DNA of 20,701 nt from Nitrospirota bacterium (GTDB lineage: Bacteria; Nitrospirota; UBA9217). The stretch is taken from positions 1 through 20,701 of the forward strand of contig JAOUEV010000056.1 in the NCBI GenBank assembly GCA_029858565.1, written 5' to 3'. A model generated the notes under the pieces. That model made no database searches, was not told the DNA's origin, and was given only the letters and a program-made list of their open reading frames with translations. The position numbers were made by a program, and so were the translations under genes. This document shows positions 1,017-18,898 of this stretch, piece by piece. Each line of letters begins with the position of its first letter. The stretch's first letter is position 1.

Positions 1017-1715
1017 TCAACTTTCATCGCTGAAACTGTAACCCACGCCGCGCACCGTGCGGATGAATTCGACGATCCCCGCTTTTTCCAGTTCGGCCCG
1101 CAAGCGCCTGATATGCACATCCACCGTGCGTTCCTCCACAAAAGCCTCGCCTTTCCATACCGCGTCCAGGATCCGGTCCCGGGTGAAAACCCTGCCTTTC
1201 CGTTCCATCAGGAACCTGAGCAGGCGGAACTCGATCGGAGAAAGATCGATGGTTATCCCTCCCGATTGCACCAGGTGGCGTTCCAAATCCACAGCGAGAG
1301 TCCCTGCGCGGAGTACTTTTTCCGCGGTGACGCCGCCTTCCGTCCTGCGCAGCACGCTTTTGACCCGGGCCATGAGTTCGCGCACGCTGAAGGGCTTGGT
1401 GACATAATCGTCCGCTCCGGTCTCAAGGCCCATGATCTTGTCCATCTCATCAGCGCGCGCCGTGAGCATGATGACAGGGACGGCGGCTGTTGCGGGGTCT
1501 TTCTTGAAGATCCGGCAAAGTTCCATGCCTGACATCCCCGGCAGCATGAGGTCCAGGAGGATCAGCTGGTACGGCCTCTCGCGGACCATACGAAGAGCAT
1601 CGTCGCCGGTCATGGCCTCGTCTACCAGGTACCCGTCCTTCTTAAGGTTGTACGTGACGAGCTGCAGGATATCCCGCTCGTCGTCAACCACCAATATCCG
1701 CAATTTCGGTTCCAT
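1017..1715 (-). CDS. phoB: OmpR/PhoB-family response regulator, probable phosphate regulon regulator PhoB
   Basis: REC domain (VVDDE, LLDLMLP, MLTA, KPF) plus winged helix ERTVDVHIRRLR...IRTVRGVGY. Context of pstS, psiE and Pho boxes. Start at ATG 1715. Confidence 0.88.
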   Translation of the reverse strand: MEPKLRILVVDDERDILQLVTYNLKKDGYLVDEAMTGDDALRMVRERPYQLILLDLMLPGMSGMELCRIFKKDPATAAVPVIMLTARADEMDKIMGLETGADDYVTKPFSVRELMARVKSVLRRTEGGVTAEKVLRAGTLAVDLERHLVQSGGITIDLSPIEFRLLRFLMERKGRVFTRDRILDAVWKGEAFVEERTVDVHIRRLRAELEKAGIVEFIRTVRGVGYSFSDES

Positions 1716-1762: not shown

Positions 1763-1829
1763 TCGTCAGACGGGATTCACGCACTTGTAACGGCATCGTA
1801 ACACAATTGTCACATGCCGCAGGTAGGAT
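1763..1829 (+). promoter_or_regulatory. Pho-box array and -10 element of psiE
   Basis: Heptamers at exact 11-bp period: TCGTCAG 1763, GATTCAC 1774, TTGTAAC 1785, TCGTAAC 1796, TTGTCAC 1807; then 10 nt and TAGGAT at 1824. Confidence 0.85.
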
Positions 1830-1885
1830 TGCCCAAAGCGAGGCTGCGGGACCGCATCCCGCCTCGAAAAGCAGGAAAGGAACGC

Positions 1886-2284
1886 ATGAACACCTTTAAC
1901 AAATTCATCGATATTTTGCTCAAGTTCATGGTTCCGCTGGTGATCATCGCGCTTATTTTGGGCATCGCACGGGTCATTGTGGACCTCAGGATGGTCTTCG
2001 GCAGCCCCACCATTACCGAGGGCTTCGACCGGATGATCACGAACATATTGTCGCTGTTCGTGGTGATCGAGTTGCTCAAGAGCCTTCTGGAGTATTTTGA
2101 CCATCATCGCATCAAGCTCACATTCATCACGGACGCGGCACTCGTTTTCGTACTGCGGGAGATCATGATCGGCATGTTCCAGCATTCCATGGCCGCGAAG
2201 GAGATTCTGGCGCTGTCGGCGCTCATTCTCGTGATTGGCGGCGTGCGCACCCTGGCGGTCGTGTTCTCGCCGGACAAACCGTGA
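1886..2284 (+). CDS. psiE: Phosphate-starvation-inducible PsiE-family membrane protein
   Basis: Four hydrophobic helices; ILSLFVVIELLKSLLEYF..HRIKLTFITDAALVFVLREI pattern. AAAGGAA RBS before ATG 1886; Pho boxes upstream. Confidence 0.85.
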   Translation: MNTFNKFIDILLKFMVPLVIIALILGIARVIVDLRMVFGSPTITEGFDRMITNILSLFVVIELLKSLLEYFDHHRIKLTFITDAALVFVLREIMIGMFQHSMAAKEILALSALILVIGGVRTLAVVFSPDKP

Positions 2285-2397
2285 AGATCCTGACGGAACA
2301 GAGTATGTCCCAAAAAATCATCGATTGGGTGGAATCGATCGCCCTGGTCATAAGCCTGATCGGCGGAGTACTGCTGGTCCTGTACCACTGGCATTGA
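2281..2397 (+). CDS. Small single-pass membrane protein (38 aa from GTG 2281, or 30 aa from ATG 2305); not in the ORF track
   Basis: (MKILTEQS)MSQKIIDWVESIALVISLIGGVLLVLYHWH*. GTGA overlap with the psiE stop; one clear hydrophobic segment. Confidence 0.5.
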   Translation: MKILTEQSMSQKIIDWVESIALVISLIGGVLLVLYHWH

Positions 2398-2470
2398 GAT
2401 TTGCGGTCTCCATGACCATACCTGACAGCGTGAGATCCCCGCGCATGTTTTACTCTCCCAGCCAGTCTGA

Positions 2471-2526
2471 CCGTAACAGAATCTTCATGGAGACGTAACG
2501 CTCCTGCAATGTCCCGCCGGTACTAT
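2471..2526 (+). promoter_or_regulatory. Pho-box array and -10 element of the signalling/porin operon
   Basis: CCGTAAC 2471, TCTTCAT 2482, ACGTAAC 2493, CTGCAAT 2504 (11-bp period); then 10 nt and TACTAT at 2521. Confidence 0.78.
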
Positions 2527-2720
2527 CTGTGTAATGATTCTCTTCGATCTTCGCATCCAGCGTATCTATATTGCGAGCAGTGACTTCCATAAACAGCGCC
2601 ATCTGTATTCCAGGAAGACGCTTCCGAACTGCACGAAGAATATCCTCGCGGTGAAAAAGCATCCGGCACAACAAGGGTGTAGCGATCACTCTGATCCGGA
2701 ACTGACAAGGAGACGATCCG

Positions 2721-3341
2721 ATGAACGAACTGGTCCTGATCGTGGAAGACGAAAGGTCTCTCACGGAATTGCTTGGCTACAACCTGCAAAAAGCGGGATA
2801 CAGGACTGCAGTGGCGGAGAACGGCGCGCAGGCGATCCGGAACGTGCGCTCGGAAGTCCCGGATATTGTGCTGCTGGACATTCTGCTGCCGGAAATGGAC
2901 GGATGGGAGGTTTGCAGGATGCTCAGGAACAGCAAGCAAGGTTCCACCCTTCCCATCATCATGGTGACGGCCCTCGCATCGGAGGACATCCGCATACGAG
3001 GACTGCGCGAGGGCGCCGACGACGTGATCGCGAAACCCTTTGTCGTCGGCGAGCTGTTGTTCAAGGTCCGGAAGCTTCTGGACAAGAATATGGTGATCAG
3101 CGCTTTCCGGAACAGGACCGAAGGGCAGGATGCTTCGATGCGCCATCTGATCCACGAGCTCAGGAATTCCCTTTCCGTCATCGGGGGATATGCAAACCTC
3201 GCGGCCTCGCGGGAGAACAGCGAACCGTGGGTAAAGCACGTGGTGTCCGCCGCGGACCGCATGGAACAGTTGCTGAGCAATGCGGCGACTGCGAAGTTTC
3301 CGGAAAAGGAAGCCGGAGAGGTGGGGGGACCGGGGGCATGA
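2721..3341 (+). CDS. Receiver domain plus HisKA (DHp) domain protein lacking an ATPase domain
   Basis: PhoB-like REC (IVEDE, LLDILLP, MVTA, KPF) followed by the H-box LIHELRNSLSVIGGYANL and a second helix, then stop. AAGGAG RBS. Confidence 0.85.
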   Translation: MNELVLIVEDERSLTELLGYNLQKAGYRTAVAENGAQAIRNVRSEVPDIVLLDILLPEMDGWEVCRMLRNSKQGSTLPIIMVTALASEDIRIRGLREGADDVIAKPFVVGELLFKVRKLLDKNMVISAFRNRTEGQDASMRHLIHELRNSLSVIGGYANLAASRENSEPWVKHVVSAADRMEQLLSNAATAKFPEKEAGEVGGPGA

Positions 3342-4537
3342 TGAGGACCTTGACGGAAAACGCGCTGACCTCGGCGGTCGGCAGCCTGATCGACTCCGCG
3401 GACTCCGTATCGTCGCAATCGACCGTCAACAGCGTTGCCGAGCGATTTTTCGGGAACACGGAACTCGAAGCGCTGGCGGTCGTGGACAGCGATGAGCCCG
3501 TCGGCCTGGTGACCAGGACCAAGCTGATGTTCAGTCTGTTCCGCAGGTACGGATTCGAACTTTACGGAAAGCGGCCCATTACCGCGGTTGCCGATGCCCG
3601 GCCCCTGATTGTCCCGGAGTCCGAACGGCTTGATGTGGTTATCGAGCGCGCCCTGGAGCGGCGGCCCCAGGATATCTACGACGAGATTATCGTGATCGAT
3701 GACGGCGGCCGGTACCGGGGGCTCCTGTCGGTGAAGCACCTGGTGGTCCAGCAGAGCAACGCGCTGGCCCAGACCATGCTGCAGAGGGAGATGGCGAGCG
3801 AACGGGCCCGGGAACTCGAACGCGAGAACGCCATGCGCTCGCAGTTCATGGCCCATGTGACCCACGAACTCCGGTCCCCGGTGAATGTCATCATCGGACT
3901 CTCGGAACTCATGCACATCGCGCTGGACAAGGGATCGATCGACCAGGTCCGGGACAGGCTGGGATCGATCATCTCGAACGCGACCAATCTCCGGACGATC
4001 GTCACGAACGTTCTCGATCTGTCCAAGCTCGAAGCGAATAAGATGCCCGTCTCCCTGCGCAGCTTCGATCTTGCCGATACGGTCCGGGAGGTTGCCGAAG
4101 CCGCGCGGGTACTTGTTCGCGCAAAACCGGTCGTGGTCGAGGTCTCGATCCCGGCGACAACGGTCCCCATCGAATCCGACCCGGTCAAGGTCCGGCAGAT
4201 CCTGATGAACCTTGCCGGCAACGCGGCCAAATTCACGGAACGGGGCTCCATCATGCTGGCCCTGTCCCTGAGCGGACACAGCGTCACCGTATCGGTCATC
4301 GACACCGGCATCGGCATCCGAACGGAACACCTGGATCGGCTGTTCCTTGCCTTCAGTCAGATCGAGGATGCGAAGACCAAACGGCATGAAGGCACGGGGC
4401 TGGGTCTCATGATCGCCCGGAGCATGGCGCGCCTGTTGGGAGGCGACCTGGACGTGGCAAGCGAGGCCGGTCAGGGAAGCACGTTCACCATTACCCTGCC
4501 GCGCAGGGCGGCACAGGAGGAAGCGAAAAATGCATAA
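3338..4537 (+). CDS. Soluble sensor histidine kinase with an N-terminal CBS pair
   Basis: ATGA overlap with the upstream gene. CBS pair (LAVVDSDEPVGLVTR...IIVIDDGGRYRGLLSV), H-box THELRSP, N-box NLAGNAAKFT, G1 DTGIGI, G2 GTGLGL. No TM helix. Confidence 0.9.
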   Translation: MMRTLTENALTSAVGSLIDSADSVSSQSTVNSVAERFFGNTELEALAVVDSDEPVGLVTRTKLMFSLFRRYGFELYGKRPITAVADARPLIVPESERLDVVIERALERRPQDIYDEIIVIDDGGRYRGLLSVKHLVVQQSNALAQTMLQREMASERARELERENAMRSQFMAHVTHELRSPVNVIIGLSELMHIALDKGSIDQVRDRLGSIISNATNLRTIVTNVLDLSKLEANKMPVSLRSFDLADTVREVAEAARVLVRAKPVVVEVSIPATTVPIESDPVKVRQILMNLAGNAAKFTERGSIMLALSLSGHSVTVSVIDTGIGIRTEHLDRLFLAFSQIEDAKTKRHEGTGLGLMIARSMARLLGGDLDVASEAGQGSTFTITLPRRAAQEEAKNA

Positions 4538-4949
4538 TCGGAAGAAGATCATGATCATCGACGACAACGAGGAAGTGCTCCGGGTCACGCGGGCCATTCT
4601 GGAACATGAAGGCTATGACGTCGTCACCCACCACAACGGGTTCGGCGCTACAAACGCCATCCGGGCGAACCGGCCGGACCTGGTGTTGCTGGACATCAAC
4701 ATGCCGGCGCTTTCAGGCGAGAATCTGGCGCCGATCATCCGTGAGAACGCTCATACGAACCGGGTGCCTGTCCTTTTCTACTCGTCAAATGACGAGGACA
4801 GCCTGCTCGAGAGCGTGACGCGCTTCGGCGTCGCGGGCTACATCTGCAAGGGCGACAGCGCGGATCTCCGGCGGAAAGCCGCCTATTTCCTCGGCAGCCA
4901 TCTGGCCGACGGGCAGGCTTTTGGCAGGCTTCTCTACGCGGTCGAATAG
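4530..4949 (+). CDS. Single-domain response regulator (CheY-like)
   Basis: IIDDN, LLDINMP, FYSS, ICKG. Overlaps the kinase stop; AGGAGG RBS. Confidence 0.88.
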   Translation: MHNRKKIMIIDDNEEVLRVTRAILEHEGYDVVTHHNGFGATNAIRANRPDLVLLDINMPALSGENLAPIIRENAHTNRVPVLFYSSNDEDSLLESVTRFGVAGYICKGDSADLRRKAAYFLGSHLADGQAFGRLLYAVE

Positions 4950-5022: not shown

Positions 5023-6168
5023 ATGAAAAAGCGGTTTGCAGCACTCGCGGTTATCGCGGTCAGTTGCTTGGCGGCGCCGGTATTCGGGGCCGAAGGCGAC
5101 GCGCCACTGGTAAAAGGGAACATCGAGGTCTACGGCGCGGCCAAGATGTCCGTTGATGTGATCGATACCGGCGCCAAGGCGGCGACGGCGGATACCACCA
5201 TGAACAAGGTCTCTTCGAACTCGTCCCGTCTGGGTTTCAAGGGATCCGAGGACCTGGGCGACGGCCTGAAGGCGGTGTTCCAGGTGGAGCTGGGGATCAA
5301 TATGGACGGCACCACCTCGACCGTCGCAACAGGCGTCAGCAACACGGCCACCGGCGCCGTCAGCACGACGAGCGTCAACACCATCAGCCTGCGGAACACT
5401 TTCGTCGGACTCGGGTCGGACGGTCTCGGGACCCTGATATTCGGCACCCATGATACGCCATACAAGGTCGCGACCGGCCAGTTCGACGCTTTCAGCGATA
5501 CCATGGGCGATTACAACGCAATTATGGGCAACGTAAACGGGGATGCGAACTTCGAGTTGCGGCCCAGGGATGTGATCGCGTATACGTCGCCGATCCTGGC
5601 CGGATTCCAGATCTCGGCGGCCACGGTCCTGTCGGAAACGACCAATACGGCCATTTCCGATGCAAGCGCCCATTCCTTCTCGGCGGCTTATAAAGCGGGC
5701 CCCCTGGCGCTCGCCGTCGCCCATGAGATCCACAAGAGCGGCATCGCGACGTGGGACGCGGCAACGACGATCACCGGCACCAGGGTCGGAGCGGGTTATG
5801 CGGTCGGCGGCACAAAGATCGGTCTTGTTTACGAGACCCTTTCCGACGACAAGGCGAATTCGAAATACAGCCGCAATGCCCTGCATGCAGCCGTCAGCCA
5901 GAAGTTCGGCAAGGAAACCGTAAAACTGGCATACGCCAAGGCGGACGACGGCGAGGATCCGACGACCAAGACCGGAGCGACGATGATCGTCGCAGGCATC
6001 GACCACAGTTTCTCCAAACGCACCGCAGTCTACGCCCTTTATGCGGCGACCAAGAACGACAAGGACGCCACCTACGGCCTCGGTCAGGGCGGCGCAGGCG
6101 GGGCATTCAAGCCGGGCAAGGATGAGGACCCCTCGGTCATATCCTTCGGCATCAATCACAGCTTCTGA
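5023..6168 (+). CDS. Outer-membrane trimeric-type porin (Gram-negative porin family)
   Basis: Signal peptide MKKRFAALAVIAVSCLAAPVFG; SRLGFKGSEDLGDGLKAVFQVE signature; HSFSKRTAVYA; C-terminal Phe. AAGGAGG RBS. Confidence 0.92.
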   Translation: MKKRFAALAVIAVSCLAAPVFGAEGDAPLVKGNIEVYGAAKMSVDVIDTGAKAATADTTMNKVSSNSSRLGFKGSEDLGDGLKAVFQVELGINMDGTTSTVATGVSNTATGAVSTTSVNTISLRNTFVGLGSDGLGTLIFGTHDTPYKVATGQFDAFSDTMGDYNAIMGNVNGDANFELRPRDVIAYTSPILAGFQISAATVLSETTNTAISDASAHSFSAAYKAGPLALAVAHEIHKSGIATWDAATTITGTRVGAGYAVGGTKIGLVYETLSDDKANSKYSRNALHAAVSQKFGKETVKLAYAKADDGEDPTTKTGATMIVAGIDHSFSKRTAVYALYAATKNDKDATYGLGQGGAGGAFKPGKDEDPSVISFGINHSF

Positions 6169-6178
6169 TCCGCTCCAG

Positions 6179-6234
6179 ACGTCATCGGGATGTAATGCAA
6201 CCGTAATTGAAATGTAACAACCGAATGGTATAAA
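6179..6234 (+). promoter_or_regulatory. Pho-box array and extended -10 element of pstS
   Basis: ACGTCAT 6179, ATGTAAT 6190, CCGTAAT 6201, ATGTAAC 6212 (11-bp period); then 10 nt and TG-G-TATAAA (hexamer at 6229). Confidence 0.85.
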
Positions 6235-14647: not shown

Positions 14648-15313
14648 ATGGGATTTCGTTATATTCTGCCTGGCTTTCTAACGGTGCTATTCTTGTTCTC
14701 TGTGACCGTGAGCGTTGTTTCTGCAGCTGCATCCGGAGACAACGCCAGGCAGGTTGAAAAAGATGTCCCGGGCGGCGCCCGTAATGAGGACATCGGCGCG
14801 CTTGAACAAGAGATAGCCGAGTACGAGTTGCAGAACCAGGGGATCAGGAAGCTGGTCCATGATCTGGAGGACGACGACCCCTACATTGTCGTGGATACGG
14901 AGAACAACCGGCTGACGCTGCGCCAGGGAGAGAAGGTCCTGCTGACAGCGGTCGTTGGTACAGGCAGCAGACAGTCAGTAGAAGAAGAGACGGGCAGGAA
15001 CTGGTATTTCGAAAGCCCGCAGGGCTCACTTGCCGTGCTCGGGAAGGAACGGAATCCCGTCTGGATACGGCCGGACTGGTCCTATGTTGAGGAGAACATG
15101 CCTATCCCTCCGCTGAGCGATCCTGACAGGATCGTACGCGAGGTCCTGGGAAAATACGCTCTCATATTAGGGAACGGGTACAAGATACACGGCACAAAAT
15201 ATACAGAACTTCTAGGAACACATTTCACCCACGGGTGTATTTCAGTGGGTGATAAAGACCTTGAATTCCTCTATGGGAACGTAAAAGTGGGTACTAAGGT
15301 CTATATTTATTAG
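14648..15313 (+). CDS. L,D-transpeptidase (YkuD family), exported
   Basis: Hydrophobic N-terminus, coiled coil, YIVVDTENNRLTL, NPVWIRPDW, catalytic IHGT...THGCISV. Start at ATG 14648 is uncertain. Confidence 0.88.
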   Translation: MGFRYILPGFLTVLFLFSVTVSVVSAAASGDNARQVEKDVPGGARNEDIGALEQEIAEYELQNQGIRKLVHDLEDDDPYIVVDTENNRLTLRQGEKVLLTAVVGTGSRQSVEEETGRNWYFESPQGSLAVLGKERNPVWIRPDWSYVEENMPIPPLSDPDRIVREVLGKYALILGNGYKIHGTKYTELLGTHFTHGCISVGDKDLEFLYGNVKVGTKVYIY

Positions 15314-15341
15314 GATTTTAACTTTTTCCGTGTAATTTAAT

Positions 15342-15839
15342 ATGGTTAGACACATACTGGTCATTTTTATCTCCCTGGCGGCCCATCTTGCTGTCATTCA
15401 GTGCCATTCCTTCGCGGAGAGCATTGCTGATACCGAACAGGATCAGCAGAAACTTGCGAAGAAACTGGAGGCGCTCAAGGCAGAGCAGGAGTACCTGCTT
15501 TTCCGCAAGACCTTTTATGAGTCTGATTCAAAATATCTTGTACTTGAACTCTCGTCAGCCAGGGGTTATCTGATGTATCGCAACAGGATCTTGCGGTCAT
15601 TCCGTATTGAGCGGTCTGGCCGTAGCATATCAGCGCCTTTGCATGGCATTATCACCATGACCGGTAAAACCGACAGCACTTCAAAGAACAGGACGCTCTT
15701 GTTCGGGAATATCCTCTTGATCCAGGCAAAGAAGAACAAAGCCGGAGGAAACAAGTTACCCGTCTATGTTGTCGGGAAAAAGGATCTTGCGGCCTTATAC
15801 TATGCACTGGAAGCCGGAGCAATGGCCTATATTAAGTAA
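15342..15839 (+). CDS. Exported protein, probable degenerate YkuD-fold paralogue lacking catalytic His/Cys
   Basis: Signal peptide, coiled coil, KYLVLELSSARGYLMYRNRILRSF, and C-terminal VVGKKDLAALYYALEAGAMAYIK parallel to the upstream gene. Confidence 0.7.
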   Translation: MVRHILVIFISLAAHLAVIQCHSFAESIADTEQDQQKLAKKLEALKAEQEYLLFRKTFYESDSKYLVLELSSARGYLMYRNRILRSFRIERSGRSISAPLHGIITMTGKTDSTSKNRTLLFGNILLIQAKKNKAGGNKLPVYVVGKKDLAALYYALEAGAMAYIK

Positions 15840-16244
15840 CTTTGCAGCTAATTGTAATTATAAGTACTTATAAAACGACATATTATCGTGATACTTGATG
15901 TATCATTGTATGGTAACACTGCATAACTATCGGTAACATTCTGTGAGCCCAATGATCTCACTTTCCACTGCCTGGAAATATCGTTGGTGCTTATTTTCAC
16001 TATTCTTTTACTAGTTGTCCATGTCGTGGTTCCTGCAATAACAACTATCTTGCATCCCTGCGTTTTCCCGATGAAACAATATAATGACAATAAAATTAAT
16101 TGCTTGTAGTTGCACTTAATAACGGCACCACAACATTTTCAAATCCAGTCTAGTTCCCTTAACGTCCTTTGGCGGTTCAGGAACACTAAGTCACACCATA
16201 TTTCCATCCCTTGAAGTTCTATCCCGAGCCGATATCCTCTGGGA

Positions 16245-16316: not shown

Positions 16317-18227
16317 ATGGTAATTGATGATGTCATAAAATTCTTCCAGGAGATACCTCCCTTCCAGTTCCTCGAAGCAAGGGAACTGAGGTCCATTGCT
16401 GAGAAGGTCTCCATGGAGTTCTACCCCAAGGGTACGGTCATTCTTCGCCAGGATGATCCGGCAAGTGATGCTCTCCGCGTCATCAAGAAGGGCGGGGTGA
16501 AGGTGTCGGTCCGGTCTGAGGACGGGCAGGAGGTCATCATCGACCACCGTGGTGAAGGTGACACCTTCGGGCTTATGTCCCTCATCGGCAAGGATGAAAA
16601 GCAGAAGACCACGGTCATCGCCATCGAGGACACGATCTGCTATCTGATGAAGAAGAGCCAGGTGCTGCCGGTGATCGAGACCAATCCCGCGTTCACCGAA
16701 TATTTTCTCCAGTTCCATTTCTCGAAGTACGTTGACAAGACCTCGCGGGACATGCACGCAAAGAGCCTGTTCTACGGGAGCAGCGATCATCTTCTTTTCA
16801 CGACGCCGGTGGGAGACATCGCCACCAAGGACGTCGTGACGGTCACCCAGGACGCGTCGATCCAGGAAGCTGCCCAGGAAATGTCCCGGAACCGCATCAG
16901 TTCGCTGATCATTGTTGACGATAACGGTCTGCCGGTCGGCATTGTCACGGACCGGGACCTGCGGGAAAAGGTCGTGTCGCGCGGCAGGGACGTGACCGAT
17001 ATGGTGAAGGACATCATGACCCTTCCCATGATCCGCGTGGATGTGAAGGATTACTGCTTTGAGGCCGTGCTGAAGATGATCAAGCACAACATCCATCACA
17101 TCCTGGTGATCAAGGACGGCAGGCTCAAGGGCGTGCTCACGAACCACGATCTCATGATGCTCCAGGGAACGTCGCCGCTCTCCTTTGCCAAGGACCTGGA
17201 GAGCCAGCAGAGCGTCGAGGGCCTTGTTCCGGTCTCCACGAAGATCAACCGCGTGGTAGGCCTGCTCCTGAAGGAAGGCGCGAAAGCGAGCAATATCACC
17301 AAGATCATCGCGGAGCTGAACGACCGGCTGGTCAGGAAGGTGCTCGAGATCGCCGAGGCGAAGTTCGGAAAGCCGCCGGTGCCCTACTGCTGGATCTCTT
17401 TTGGAAGCGAAGGCCGGAAAGAACAGACATTCAAGACGGACCAGGACAATGCCATCATTCACGGCGACACGGACTCGCCTGCGCTGGCAGATCAGGCCAA
17501 GCGCTACTTCGCCGCTTTTTCCCTTTTTGTGCGCGACGGCCTGGTGCGGTGCGGCTTTCCCCATTGCCCGGCAGATTACATGGCGAGCAATCCCCGGTGG
17601 TGTCAGCCGCTCTCGGTCTGGAAGCAGTATTTCACGTCCTGGGTGCATACGCCGAATCCCGAGGCGGTCCTGCGGTCCCTCATATTCTTCGATTTCCGGA
17701 TGCTCCATGGAGATGAGCGGCTGGCCGCCGAGCTCCGCAGCCATCTTGGTTCCATCCTGAAGGGCCAGAACATCTTCCTGGCCCAGATGGCCGGCGTGGT
17801 GATCAAGAACCGGCCGCCGCTGGGGTTCTTCAAGAAGTTCATCGTTGAAAAGGACGGCGAGCACAAGAACGAGCTGAATCTCAAGTTCCGGGGCATCGGC
17901 CCGCTGGTGGACATTGTGCGGCTCTTCGCGCTGGAGAGCGGCGTTTCCGAGACCTCGACCCTGGAGCGGATCGAGGCCATGAAGGGGAAGCACCCTTCGA
18001 TCGATTCCTCCGGTGATGAACTGGCCCAGGCATTCGAGTTCATTACCCTGCTCAGGATCCATCATCAGGTGGAGCAGATCGAGAAGGGCGAAGAGCCGGA
18101 CAATTTCATCAATCCGACCCGCCTGAGCAACCTGGAAAAGCGGATACTGAAAGAATCCTTCCAGGTGATCTCCCTGCTGCAGGACGGACTGTCCGACCAG
18201 TATGGCCCGGGCATGGTGGGAGGATGA
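16317..18227 (+). CDS. cNMP-binding / CBS-pair / DUF294 nucleotidyltransferase-domain protein
   Basis: cNMP domain (YPKGTVILRQDD...GDTFG), CBS pair (PVGIVTDRDLR), Pol-beta-type motif FGSEGRKEQTFKTDQDNAII, DUF294_C (NLKFRGIGPLVDIVR). Confidence 0.93.
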   Translation: MVIDDVIKFFQEIPPFQFLEARELRSIAEKVSMEFYPKGTVILRQDDPASDALRVIKKGGVKVSVRSEDGQEVIIDHRGEGDTFGLMSLIGKDEKQKTTVIAIEDTICYLMKKSQVLPVIETNPAFTEYFLQFHFSKYVDKTSRDMHAKSLFYGSSDHLLFTTPVGDIATKDVVTVTQDASIQEAAQEMSRNRISSLIIVDDNGLPVGIVTDRDLREKVVSRGRDVTDMVKDIMTLPMIRVDVKDYCFEAVLKMIKHNIHHILVIKDGRLKGVLTNHDLMMLQGTSPLSFAKDLESQQSVEGLVPVSTKINRVVGLLLKEGAKASNITKIIAELNDRLVRKVLEIAEAKFGKPPVPYCWISFGSEGRKEQTFKTDQDNAIIHGDTDSPALADQAKRYFAAFSLFVRDGLVRCGFPHCPADYMASNPRWCQPLSVWKQYFTSWVHTPNPEAVLRSLIFFDFRMLHGDERLAAELRSHLGSILKGQNIFLAQMAGVVIKNRPPLGFFKKFIVEKDGEHKNELNLKFRGIGPLVDIVRLFALESGVSETSTLERIEAMKGKHPSIDSSGDELAQAFEFITLLRIHHQVEQIEKGEEPDNFINPTRLSNLEKRILKESFQVISLLQDGLSDQYGPGMVGG

Positions 18228-18898
18228 GTGATATGTTCGGACTTTTGACCCGAAATAGCGCTGACCTGAACGCCTGCGGGATAGATGACAGGACACTGGT
18301 CAGCGAGTGCAGGTACGTGGTCCTGGACACGGAACTGACGGGGCTCGAGGTCAAGAAGGATTCGATCGTGTCCATCGGCGCGGTCGCCATGACCGGCGGT
18401 TCGATCCATATCGGCGAGACCTTCTACCGGCTCGTGAGCCCGGAAACGGAAATGCGGGGCTCCAGTGTCGTGGTGCACGGGATCACGCCGTCCGAGGTAG
18501 CGGACAAACCGTCCATCGCCCAGACCATGGATGAACTGCTGAAGTTCTGCGAGGGTTCGGTCGTGGTAGGCCACTTTCTTTCGCTGGACCTCAAGTTCCT
18601 GAACAAGGAGATGAAACGGCTGTCAGGCCGCGAGTTCCCCGGTCCGGCTGTGGACACCTTCCGCATCCATGAGTGGATCCGGGAGCATGACGGTTCGTTC
18701 AGCACGCATTACAACGGCATGGTGCGGGACACGGACCTCTTCACCATGGCCAAGAGATACCATATCCAGGTATCCGCGGCGCACAACGCGCTCATGGACG
18801 CTTTTGTCACGGCACAGCTCTTTCAGCGGTTCCTGAGCTTCCTGCCGTCCCTGGGCGTCCCAACCGTGAAGGACCTGCTGCGGATCGGAAAACCATAA
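18224..18898 (+). CDS. DEDDh 3'-5' exonuclease-family (DnaQ-like) protein
   Basis: VVLDTELTGL (ExoI), GHFLSLD (ExoII), HNALMDA (ExoIII). ATGA overlap with the DUF294 gene. Confidence 0.9.
   Translation: MSDMFGLLTRNSADLNACGIDDRTLVSECRYVVLDTELTGLEVKKDSIVSIGAVAMTGGSIHIGETFYRLVSPETEMRGSSVVVHGITPSEVADKPSIAQTMDELLKFCEGSVVVGHFLSLDLKFLNKEMKRLSGREFPGPAVDTFRIHEWIREHDGSFSTHYNGMVRDTDLFTMAKRYHIQVSAAHNALMDAFVTAQLFQRFLSFLPSLGVPTVKDLLRIGKP

Follow-up and report, generated by a model that had tools for sequence, protein, structure and literature searches.

Does an operon in which a PhoB-like receiver is joined to a histidine-bearing hairpin, with no ATPase domain behind it, encode a new kind of phosphorelay, or is it a variation on known two-component principles? 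The question is raised by three overlapping genes at positions 2721-4949 of a 20,701-nucleotide stretch of DNA (contig JAOUEV010000056.1; hereafter the window) from a Nitrospirota bacterium, which encode a receiver (REC) domain fused to a hairpin for dimerization and histidine phosphotransfer (DHp), a soluble histidine kinase with a CBS pair, and a lone receiver. A preliminary description had read this locus as a PhoR-independent His-Asp-His-Asp relay feeding PhoB. Using direct observations of the gene anatomy, the deletion origin of gene 1, its conservation, the Pho-box linkage and the adjacency of kinase and receiver, we find that the parts of this operon are standard, that the ATPase-less protein is a lineage-specific truncation, and that a canonical Pho system is present in the same genome, and that known two-component principles stand. 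The three genes of the operon are as follows:

2721..3341, + strand: REC-DHp protein (P0001), 206 aa; from Pfam, NCBIfam, alignment and AlphaFold2
3338..4537, + strand: soluble CBS-pair histidine kinase (P0002), 399 aa; from Pfam, NCBIfam and AlphaFold2
4530..4949, + strand: single-domain receiver (P0003, or REC3), 139 aa; Pfam Response_reg, 76 bits

The open reading frames (ORFs) at 2721-3341, 3338-4537 and 4530-4949, whose coordinates we confirmed, run head to tail on the + strand, with an overlap of 4 nt between genes 1 and 2 (ATGA at 3338-3341), an overlap of 8 nt between genes 2 and 3 (4530-4537), and a Shine-Dalgarno-like purine run before each of the three starts. Pfam and these coordinates agree with the three overlapping genes and the domain layouts first proposed. 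The REC-DHp protein P0001 contains a Response_reg domain (99.1 bits) and a HisKA match of 26.0 bits at residues 141-187, just below the cut-off of 26.9; the copy in the same-genus genome G001 scores 33.0 bits for HisKA, and the H-box of P0001 aligns column for column with that of full-length orthologues, so that the DHp hairpin with its histidine is present. The key residues are D10, D53, T83 and K105 in the receiver, and H145-E-L-R-N149 in the H-box. Pfam finds no HATPase_c domain in P0001, which stops at residue 206 with the start of P0002 inside its stop codon; the reading of gene 1 as an intact H-box with no ATPase is thus upheld, with the motif invariant in the six short forms described below. 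Among NCBIfam models, the P0001 receiver fits PhoB best (118.8 bits over residues 1-123, against a cut-off of 296.2). AlphaFold2 models the protein with a mean predicted local distance difference test score (pLDDT) of 84.7, as helices at 109-162 and 169-192 with a turn between them and a disordered tail, and with the last helix of the receiver continuing unbroken into the histidine helix (109-162). A two-copy complex prediction scored 0.37, against a mark of 0.42.

The second gene encodes a kinase with a CBS pair at about residues 15-150, a helical linker, a HisKA domain with H176, and HATPase_c, for which Pfam gives CBS 33.9 bits in two stretches (cut-off 24), HisKA 52.3 bits and HATPase_c 95.5 bits. 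Its AlphaFold2 model has a mean pLDDT of 65.3, with beta-alpha-beta-beta-alpha occurring twice in residues 24-151 (pLDDT 54-84 in that part). The top NCBIfam models for the kinase core are the hybrid-type kinases TorS, HrmK, LuxQ and BarA; on the PhoR model P0002 scores 155.7 bits against a cut-off of 334.2, and none of P0001, P0002 or P0003 reaches the PhoR or PhoB NCBIfam cut-off. That this kinase is membrane-free was confirmed by Kyte-Doolittle analysis, which identified no membrane-like segment in any of the three proteins (maximum 19-residue means of 1.17 in P0001, 1.47 in P0002 and 1.05 in P0003). A sequence search of the PDB with P0002 matched kinase cores only, leaving the CBS part without a match, and a Protein Atlas search with residues 1-150 gave top scores of 0.89, below the meaningful level. 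The CBS strand motifs GLVTRTK and GLLSVK(Q/H) lack an acidic residue that we take to be a ribose contact. The likeness to EAL-CBS-GGDEF proteins proposed at the outset was not recovered, as 0 of 578 candidates of 700-2000 aa scored for the CBS part, although this is weak evidence.

In order to place the ATPase-less protein, we searched with P0001 in 40 relatives, comprising 24 other genomes of the same family and 16 from other families. A match over both REC and DHp is present in 11 of the 24 same-family genomes, with 42-58% identity, and 10 of these 11 orthologues, from ten genera, are 360-374 aa long counted from the first residue of the receiver and contain clear N, G1, F and G2 boxes. Pfam recognized HATPase_c in all six of the long orthologues tested, their cores being HisKA plus HATPase_c. 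The short form occurs among the same-family relatives only in G001, i.e., within the same genus (220 aa). A second genome of this genus, G002, contains the receiver alone (133 aa), having lost both the hairpin and the CBS kinase, and G003 gave no P0001 orthologue; the 16 genomes from other families gave no match past query residue 167. Public loci gave the same picture. Among 80 such loci, which were found via the CBS kinase in species-representative genomes and assigned to groups by record title, 18 have a REC-kinase gene upstream, 17 of these encoding proteins of 359-399 aa and one a protein of 220 aa, although this sole short form (L045) could stem from a genome that is in the count already. 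As judged from these sequence comparisons, the short form arose by deletion from a full REC-HisKA-HATPase kinase and does not constitute a class of its own: its homologues run on into HATPase in 10 of 11 genomes and 17 of 18 loci, an outcome that the preliminary description had named in advance as refuting its model.

A HMMER search against 1.84 billion representatives returned five single-stretch matches spanning receiver and hairpin (to at least query residue 189): P0004 (short, 210 aa, 70% identity), two long proteins (374 and 403 aa), P0061 and P0081. In P0061 (391 aa), the receiver and first hairpin are joined to an ATPase domain of the CBS-kinase type, an arrangement that loss of the DNA separating the two tandem kinase genes would produce, while in P0081 (267 aa) the ATP-binding core is deleted internally; both are database proteins, for which chimeric assembly is possible. 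In a tree rooted on two PhoB receivers, the short forms and the long form of G012 separate from the remaining long forms. A topology in which the short forms and G002 are monophyletic is not rejected (log-likelihood difference of 0.46, approximately unbiased (AU) p of 0.317), so a single loss of the ATPase in the short forms is compatible with the tree. P0061 and P0081 nest within the long-form clade and would therefore be separate events.

The short form does not look like a gene in decay. A word-based search with residues 120-206 identified four further short forms of 205-210 aa, which with the G001 copy gives six sequences of 205-220 aa that are 54-78% identical to one another. Invariant in all six are D10, D53, K105, H145-E-L-R-N-S-L151, G155-G156, W170 and A177-A178, with the tails diverging after L185. 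Since these six divergent sequences keep an invariant H-box, the short form appears to be maintained. Among three of them (those of the window, G001 and P0004) the hairpin is 64-80% identical and the receiver 62-72%, and for 49 pairs of long forms whose receivers are about as similar, mean hairpin identity is 55.8%. Identity of the hairpin between short and long forms is lower, at 37-45%, which suggests a shift after loss of the ATPase, followed by constraint.

The most widely conserved part of the operon is the CBS kinase together with the receiver that follows it. The kinase family is of uniform length (about 400 aa), with 168 clusters at E<=1e-5, whose source names point to Nitrospirota, and full-length identity is about 50-75% among Nitrospirota, Desulfuromonadales/Geobacteraceae and Acidobacteriota-type bins. 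The sensor part is strongly conserved, with invariant stretches that include GL.TR.K....F.R.GFELY and Y.G.L.V. Of the 80 public loci, 57 are labelled Nitrospirota/Thermodesulfovibrionales, the remainder being Desulfuromonadales, Geobacteraceae, Thermoanaerobaculia and other Acidobacteriota, Aminicenantes, Rokubacteria and Myxococcales bins; one record is from a Geomesophilobacter isolate. A lone receiver lies directly 3′ of the kinase in 75 of the 80 loci, including L099, where it overlaps the kinase stop by 4 nt; 3 of the 5 loci without a downstream receiver have <250 bp of contig left, and 9 of the 80 have two lone receivers in tandem. On these adjacency statistics the CBS kinase and the lone receiver are likely a cognate pair, and the hybrid-type core of the kinase would fit a detached, CheY-like receiver. 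This conserved position directly 3′ of the kinase speaks against the earlier notion of the lone receiver as a sink. A literature search that was thin on subscription journals returned no description of a CBS-pair kinase in the Pho regulon, or of this operon.

Variation within the pair was also observed. The lone receivers form three groups, and G001 contains two in tandem (L033 9914-10732). P0003 of the window is 78-82% identical to the first receiver of G001 over residues 1-116, with a tail (FLG.H..D...F.R.LYAVE) typical of the second, and because a first-copy body carries a second-copy tail it looks like a fusion of two tandem genes. In G008 the CBS kinase (L038 6199-7375) appears as two adjoining matches that meet at query residues 212/213, which suggests a frameshifted gene or pseudogene.

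What controls the operon is indicated by the region upstream of gene 1 and by a second site located further downstream:

2470..2514, + strand: Pho-box array, four boxes phased at about 11 bp; matrix from other genomes, homologous arrays
2567..2702, + strand: remnant of a PHP-domain phosphoesterase gene, frameshifted, last ~46 codons; tblastn
6178..6222, + strand: second, weaker Pho-box array, 5′ of pstS; 10.2 bits, rank 18 of 19 hits >10 bits

The boxes are GTAAC at 2473-2477, TTCAT at 2484-2488, GTAAC at 2495-2499 and TGCAAT at 2505-2510, i.e., GTAAC-N6-TTCAT-N6-GTAAC-N5-TGCAAT, and a -10-like TACTAT at 2521-2526 can be read directly from the sequence. Orthologous genes share a footprint of four boxes (GTAAC / TTAAC / TTCAT / TGTAAC) with the same phase of about 11 bp, 60-100 bp before the start. 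We built a Pho matrix from 12 arrays, all from other genomes, and scanned the whole 3.9-Mb genome on both strands with it; the expression used to choose the training sites was written after the window site had been seen. The predicted site at 2470-2514 has the best matrix score in the genome (16.4 bits), and the site ranked third directly precedes the canonical pstS on another contig (C126). By this array in the promoter region, the operon apparently belongs to the Pho regulon, with binding of PhoB being putative. The Pho-box promoter of the preliminary description is real, with its boxes about 210-250 bp upstream of the first start codon. An alternative pattern, YGTNAC-N4-YGTNAC, which is the PhoB box of D. 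vulgaris in the accessible part of PMC3333781, was dropped, as it gave 2 matches (1 mismatch) against 3.0 expected, with none near the operon, and the host is not Desulfovibrio.

The unusual distance of some 210 bp between array and start codon is explained by the PHP remnant that sits between them. This remnant was detected with tblastn as two high-scoring segment pairs in frames +2 and +3, with 68-81% identity to the intact proteins of G012 and G002, where the genes carry Pfam PHP and precede the REC-kinase gene. The window's genome contains no intact PHP copy elsewhere that this query could find. In G001 (L033 7982-8090), the first ~35 codons of the PHP gene run into the start of the REC-DHp gene, so that this gene has been deleted in two different ways within the genus.

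The association of the CBS kinase with Pho-type features extends beyond this genus. Of the 57 Nitrospirota-labelled loci, 39 have Pho-type neighbors (pstS/C/B, phoU, phoB, psiE or PHP genes), as do 4 of the other 23. Arrays scoring >20 bits on the same strand, up to 1.6 kb upstream, are found in 31 of the 52 Nitrospirota-labelled loci outside the matrix and in 1 of the 23 others, and across the 80 loci the hits >20 bits number 137 on the plus strand versus 14 on the minus strand. As the matrix was built from Nitrospirota, its silence in other phyla says little. Several Nitrospirota loci (for example L060, L064 and L069) contain 9-12 array hits >14 bits on one strand within 13 kb and resemble dense "Pho islands" around the CBS kinase; in that of G012, psiE and the PHP gene flank GH1 and GT21 genes.

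Whether this operon replaces PhoR or answers to it depends on what else the genome contains. The window itself contains a PhoB-type gene upstream of the operon:

1017..1712, - strand: PhoB2, an orphan PhoB-type response regulator; TIGR02154 289.7 bits (cut-off 296.2), Response_reg + Trans_reg_C

The ORF of PhoB2 reaches 1796, with the likely start at the M of MEPKLRILVVDD, and no kinase gene adjoins it in the window. This agrees locally with the description of a phoB without phoR or phoU nearby, which does not hold genome-wide. On contig C126, a PhoB-like regulator (283.6 bits) comes first, then a kinase of 597 aa that contains two membrane segments (PnpS 365 bits and phoR_proteo 288 bits, both below the cut-offs), and about 20 kb further on pstS-pstC-pstA-pstB-phoU, each above at least one matching NCBIfam cut-off. 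Since this phoB-phoR-like pair exists on C126, the phoB of the window is a second, orphan paralogue, and the system cannot be called PhoR-independent in a genome with such a pair and pstSCAB-phoU; the operon seems to be controlled by the Pho system and not to stand in for it. Genes of the PhoB2 type (at least 66% identity) are present in G001-G003, G007, G009, G012 and G023, and the REC-kinase gene in G001, G008, G010, G012, G014, G015, G017, G020-G022 and G024. Four genomes (G003, G007, G009 and G023) thus contain PhoB2-type genes without the module, 8 module genomes carry only a 51-58% type, and we see no co-distribution of the two across the relatives. G012 contains two PhoB2-type genes (on C11 and C7, 80% and 79% identical to that of the window), whereas the window's genome contains one, plus a 54%-identical copy beside the PhoR-like kinase.

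Comparison with known systems places the module among receiver-regulated kinases. By analogy of layout, the closest analogue is the BphP1-ExsG-ExsF/AgR pathway of Rhizobium NT-26 and Agrobacterium, which the apparent ancestral layout here matches. In this pathway, as the accessible part of the source describes it, BphP1 has two targets, a lone receiver and the receiver at the N-terminus of ExsG, phosphorylation of the latter inhibiting ExsG kinase, and the ExsG histidine serves a second lone receiver, ExsF, and not its own receiver (PMC3899027). Both have a sensor kinase, a soluble receiver-kinase and one or two lone receivers in one cluster, and an N-terminal receiver with a kinase core, as in ExsG, was held by the ancestral layout, of which the window copy keeps only receiver and hairpin. 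As in ExsG, the receiver of the second kinase would itself be phosphorylated and regulate the transmitter joined to it. The two differ in that the core here is HisKA rather than the HWE type of the hexameric ExsG, in that the sensor is a CBS pair rather than a phytochrome and its cluster lies behind Pho boxes, and in that the second kinase has no ATPase domain in the window's genus. For EnvZ and NtrB, the isolated DHp domain is enough to give phosphatase activity (PMC3510030). Like these isolated domains, P0001 has a HisKA hairpin without an ATPase and the E/DxxT/N motif (as HELRN), but those described there are laboratory truncations, whereas P0001 was truncated in nature, its truncation is fixed in a lineage, and it carries a fused receiver upstream. 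With PhoR-PhoB/PstSCAB-PhoU the locus has in common an upstream Pho-box array, a downstream pstS and a PhoB-like receiver; unlike PhoR, the CBS kinase lacks both a membrane segment and a PAS domain, and unlike PhoB, P0001 has no DNA-binding domain. Spo0B and ChpT are kinase-derived hairpins with a phosphorylatable histidine and no kinase activity; they retain an ATPase-like domain in degenerate form, and no receiver is fused to them. P0001 differs from both in having a fused receiver, nothing after the hairpin, and full-length kinase orthologues in sister genera, and it matched neither the Spo0B nor the ChpT Pfam family at E<=0.1.

Based on these comparisons, we propose that the locus is a Pho-induced accessory two-component operon whose ATPase-less protein is a phosphatase or phosphoryl shuttle gated by its receiver, a reading to which we would give an even chance. 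The soluble kinase, with the CBS pair as its only input, would phosphorylate the single-domain receiver encoded right after it. Gene 1 derives from a second, receiver-regulated kinase (REC-HisKA-HATPase) that lies upstream of this pair in one Nitrospirota clade, and a deletion in this genus removed the ATPase domain, leaving the receiver and the helix-linked histidine hairpin under presumed purifying selection. As P0001 has no ATPase, it cannot autophosphorylate; instead, the CBS kinase or PhoR may set the state of Asp53 and thereby control phosphatase activity or reverse phosphotransfer of the hairpin on a partner receiver, which is most likely the lone receiver and less likely PhoB. The phosphoryl flows, the ligand of the CBS pair and the output of the lone receiver are what we infer in this proposal. 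A fuller version, in which the CBS kinase is a PhoB-controlled cytoplasmic sensor of phosphate or energy, the REC-DHp protein is an ex-kinase turned receiver-gated phosphotransferase/phosphatase, and the external-phosphate signal (from PhoR, via the PhoB-like receiver) joins the internal one (from the CBS kinase) on one small receiver, we consider unlikely as a whole.

Several observations weigh against the proposed accessory operon. The window array, at 16.4 bits, scores far under the training sites (46-60 bits). The end of the alpha-2 helix has degenerated differently in each short form. Glu146 is invariant, which is unexpected for a pure phosphatase: in CrdS, according to the accessible part of PMC3510030, the residue at this position is required for kinase and not for phosphatase activity. 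The closest paralogues of the P0001 receiver in its own genome are the two PhoBs (40-42%), and helix alpha-1, read as YNLQKAGY in P0001, corresponds to YNLKKAGY in one PhoB, YNLKKDGY in the other, and AILEHEGY in P0003; this PhoB-like alpha-1 points to PhoR as a source of input to Asp53, in place of the CBS kinase or alongside it. Lastly, the cores of all three long orthologues scored rank PnpS and PhoR first among NCBIfam models, which would fit output to a PhoB-type regulator, as a weak lead. When two long-orthologue cores were compared with the genome by tblastn, the PhoR-like kinase came 4th-5th at 26-30% identity, i.e., with no special closeness.

Some of these points are shared by the four-step relay of the preliminary description, in which phosphate would pass from the CBS kinase to Asp53, from there to His145, and on to PhoB (or the lone receiver), independently of PhoR. 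Such a relay would make use of an Asp53 and a His145 that are both invariant in six short forms, of a PhoB-like receiver, of the PnpS and PhoR affinities of the three long-orthologue cores and of an orphan phoB 1 kb from the operon, and ATPase-less DHp phosphotransferases of the kind it requires exist in Spo0B and ChpT. We nevertheless regard it as quite unlikely, given that the ancestor of P0001 was a complete kinase, that the partner conserved with the CBS kinase is the lone receiver and not PhoB, and that the genome contains a phoB-phoR-like pair and pstSCAB-phoU. No link of the module to the neighboring phoB is apparent, as PhoB2-type genes and the module do not co-occur. In the closest analogue, moreover, the ExsG histidine passes no phosphate to its own receiver, whose role is allosteric, and reverse transfer is unreported in the accessible part of PMC3899027.

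Erosion of the locus gives some weight to a different explanation, in which the hairpin is a dimerization stalk or decaying remnant and the receiver is a decoy or sink that competes with PhoB or the lone receiver for the kinase. Within this genus the PHP gene has been deleted in two ways, G002 retains the receiver without hairpin or CBS kinase, the lone receiver seems to combine parts of two tandem copies, and the alpha-2 end is degenerate. A stalk, however, needs no invariant H-E-L-R-N-S-L across six sequences that are only 54-78% identical, and the DHp is conserved at least as much as the receiver, so that we hold a decoy to be improbable. Very unlikely, in our estimate, is a split kinase, in which the ATPase domain of P0002 would phosphorylate His145 of P0001 in trans in addition to its own His176, so that the CBS input would act through two hairpins of different receiver specificity. 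The natural chimera P0061, which joins receiver and first hairpin to an ATPase of the CBS-kinase type, the invariance of the kinase-specific Glu146 and the 4-nt gene overlap are all in its favor, but P0061 is one database representative and possibly a chimeric assembly, and paralogous kinases usually avoid cross-reaction.

The remaining features around the operon are the following:

1814..2284, + strand: psiE-family gene; Pfam PsiE, 50.5 bits
2428..2444, + strand: terminator-like hairpin closing the psiE unit; a consensus match only, with the region's site count equal to chance
5023..6168, + strand: outer-membrane porin with signal peptide; Pfam Porin_4, 146 bits
6266..7279, + strand: second PstS phosphate-binding protein; NF008171 385 bits and TIGR00975 366 bits, both above cut-offs

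A porin occupies the same place after the receivers in G001, with 58% identity, and we found no terminator-like site on the + strand between 4949 and 6168; the porin is probably co-transcribed with the operon. A search of sequencing runs listed no RNA run that carries this DNA, and one DNA run that carries it in full, which may be its own source. Upstream, a metallophosphoesterase gene is, like PhoB2, on the - strand. Directly 3′ of psiE, at 2305-2397 (+), lies a hydrophobic ORF of 30 codons (MSQKIIDW...LYHWH), with a 62%-identical small ORF 3′ of psiE in G012 (L034 4336-4422) and weaker ones in L068 and L084; a conserved small membrane peptide may be encoded here as part of the psiE unit. Further downstream, 16317-18898 (+) encodes the window's second CBS-pair protein, a cNMP-binding / CBS-pair / DUF294 nucleotidyltransferase whose stop codon overlaps the following RNase T-type exonuclease gene, and which is not related to the operon. 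At 15001-16000 the G+C content drops to 0.456, versus 0.54-0.62 elsewhere, and the ORF at 15342-15839 has no Pfam match.

The main value of this locus lies in a widely conserved, unstudied pair of CBS kinase and receiver under apparent Pho control, together with the conversion of a kinase to a hairpin. How bacteria read internal as opposed to transported phosphate is debated, and a Pho-induced cytoplasmic CBS kinase is a concrete candidate sensor; if the fuller version above is true, it would represent a second, internal sensing branch that tunes the Pho response. The REC-DHp protein is a natural experiment in which the ATPase was lost and the histidine box was kept through speciation, with intact orthologues available for comparison, and, again if true, it would offer a natural snapshot of phosphotransferases like Spo0B and ChpT arising from kinases.

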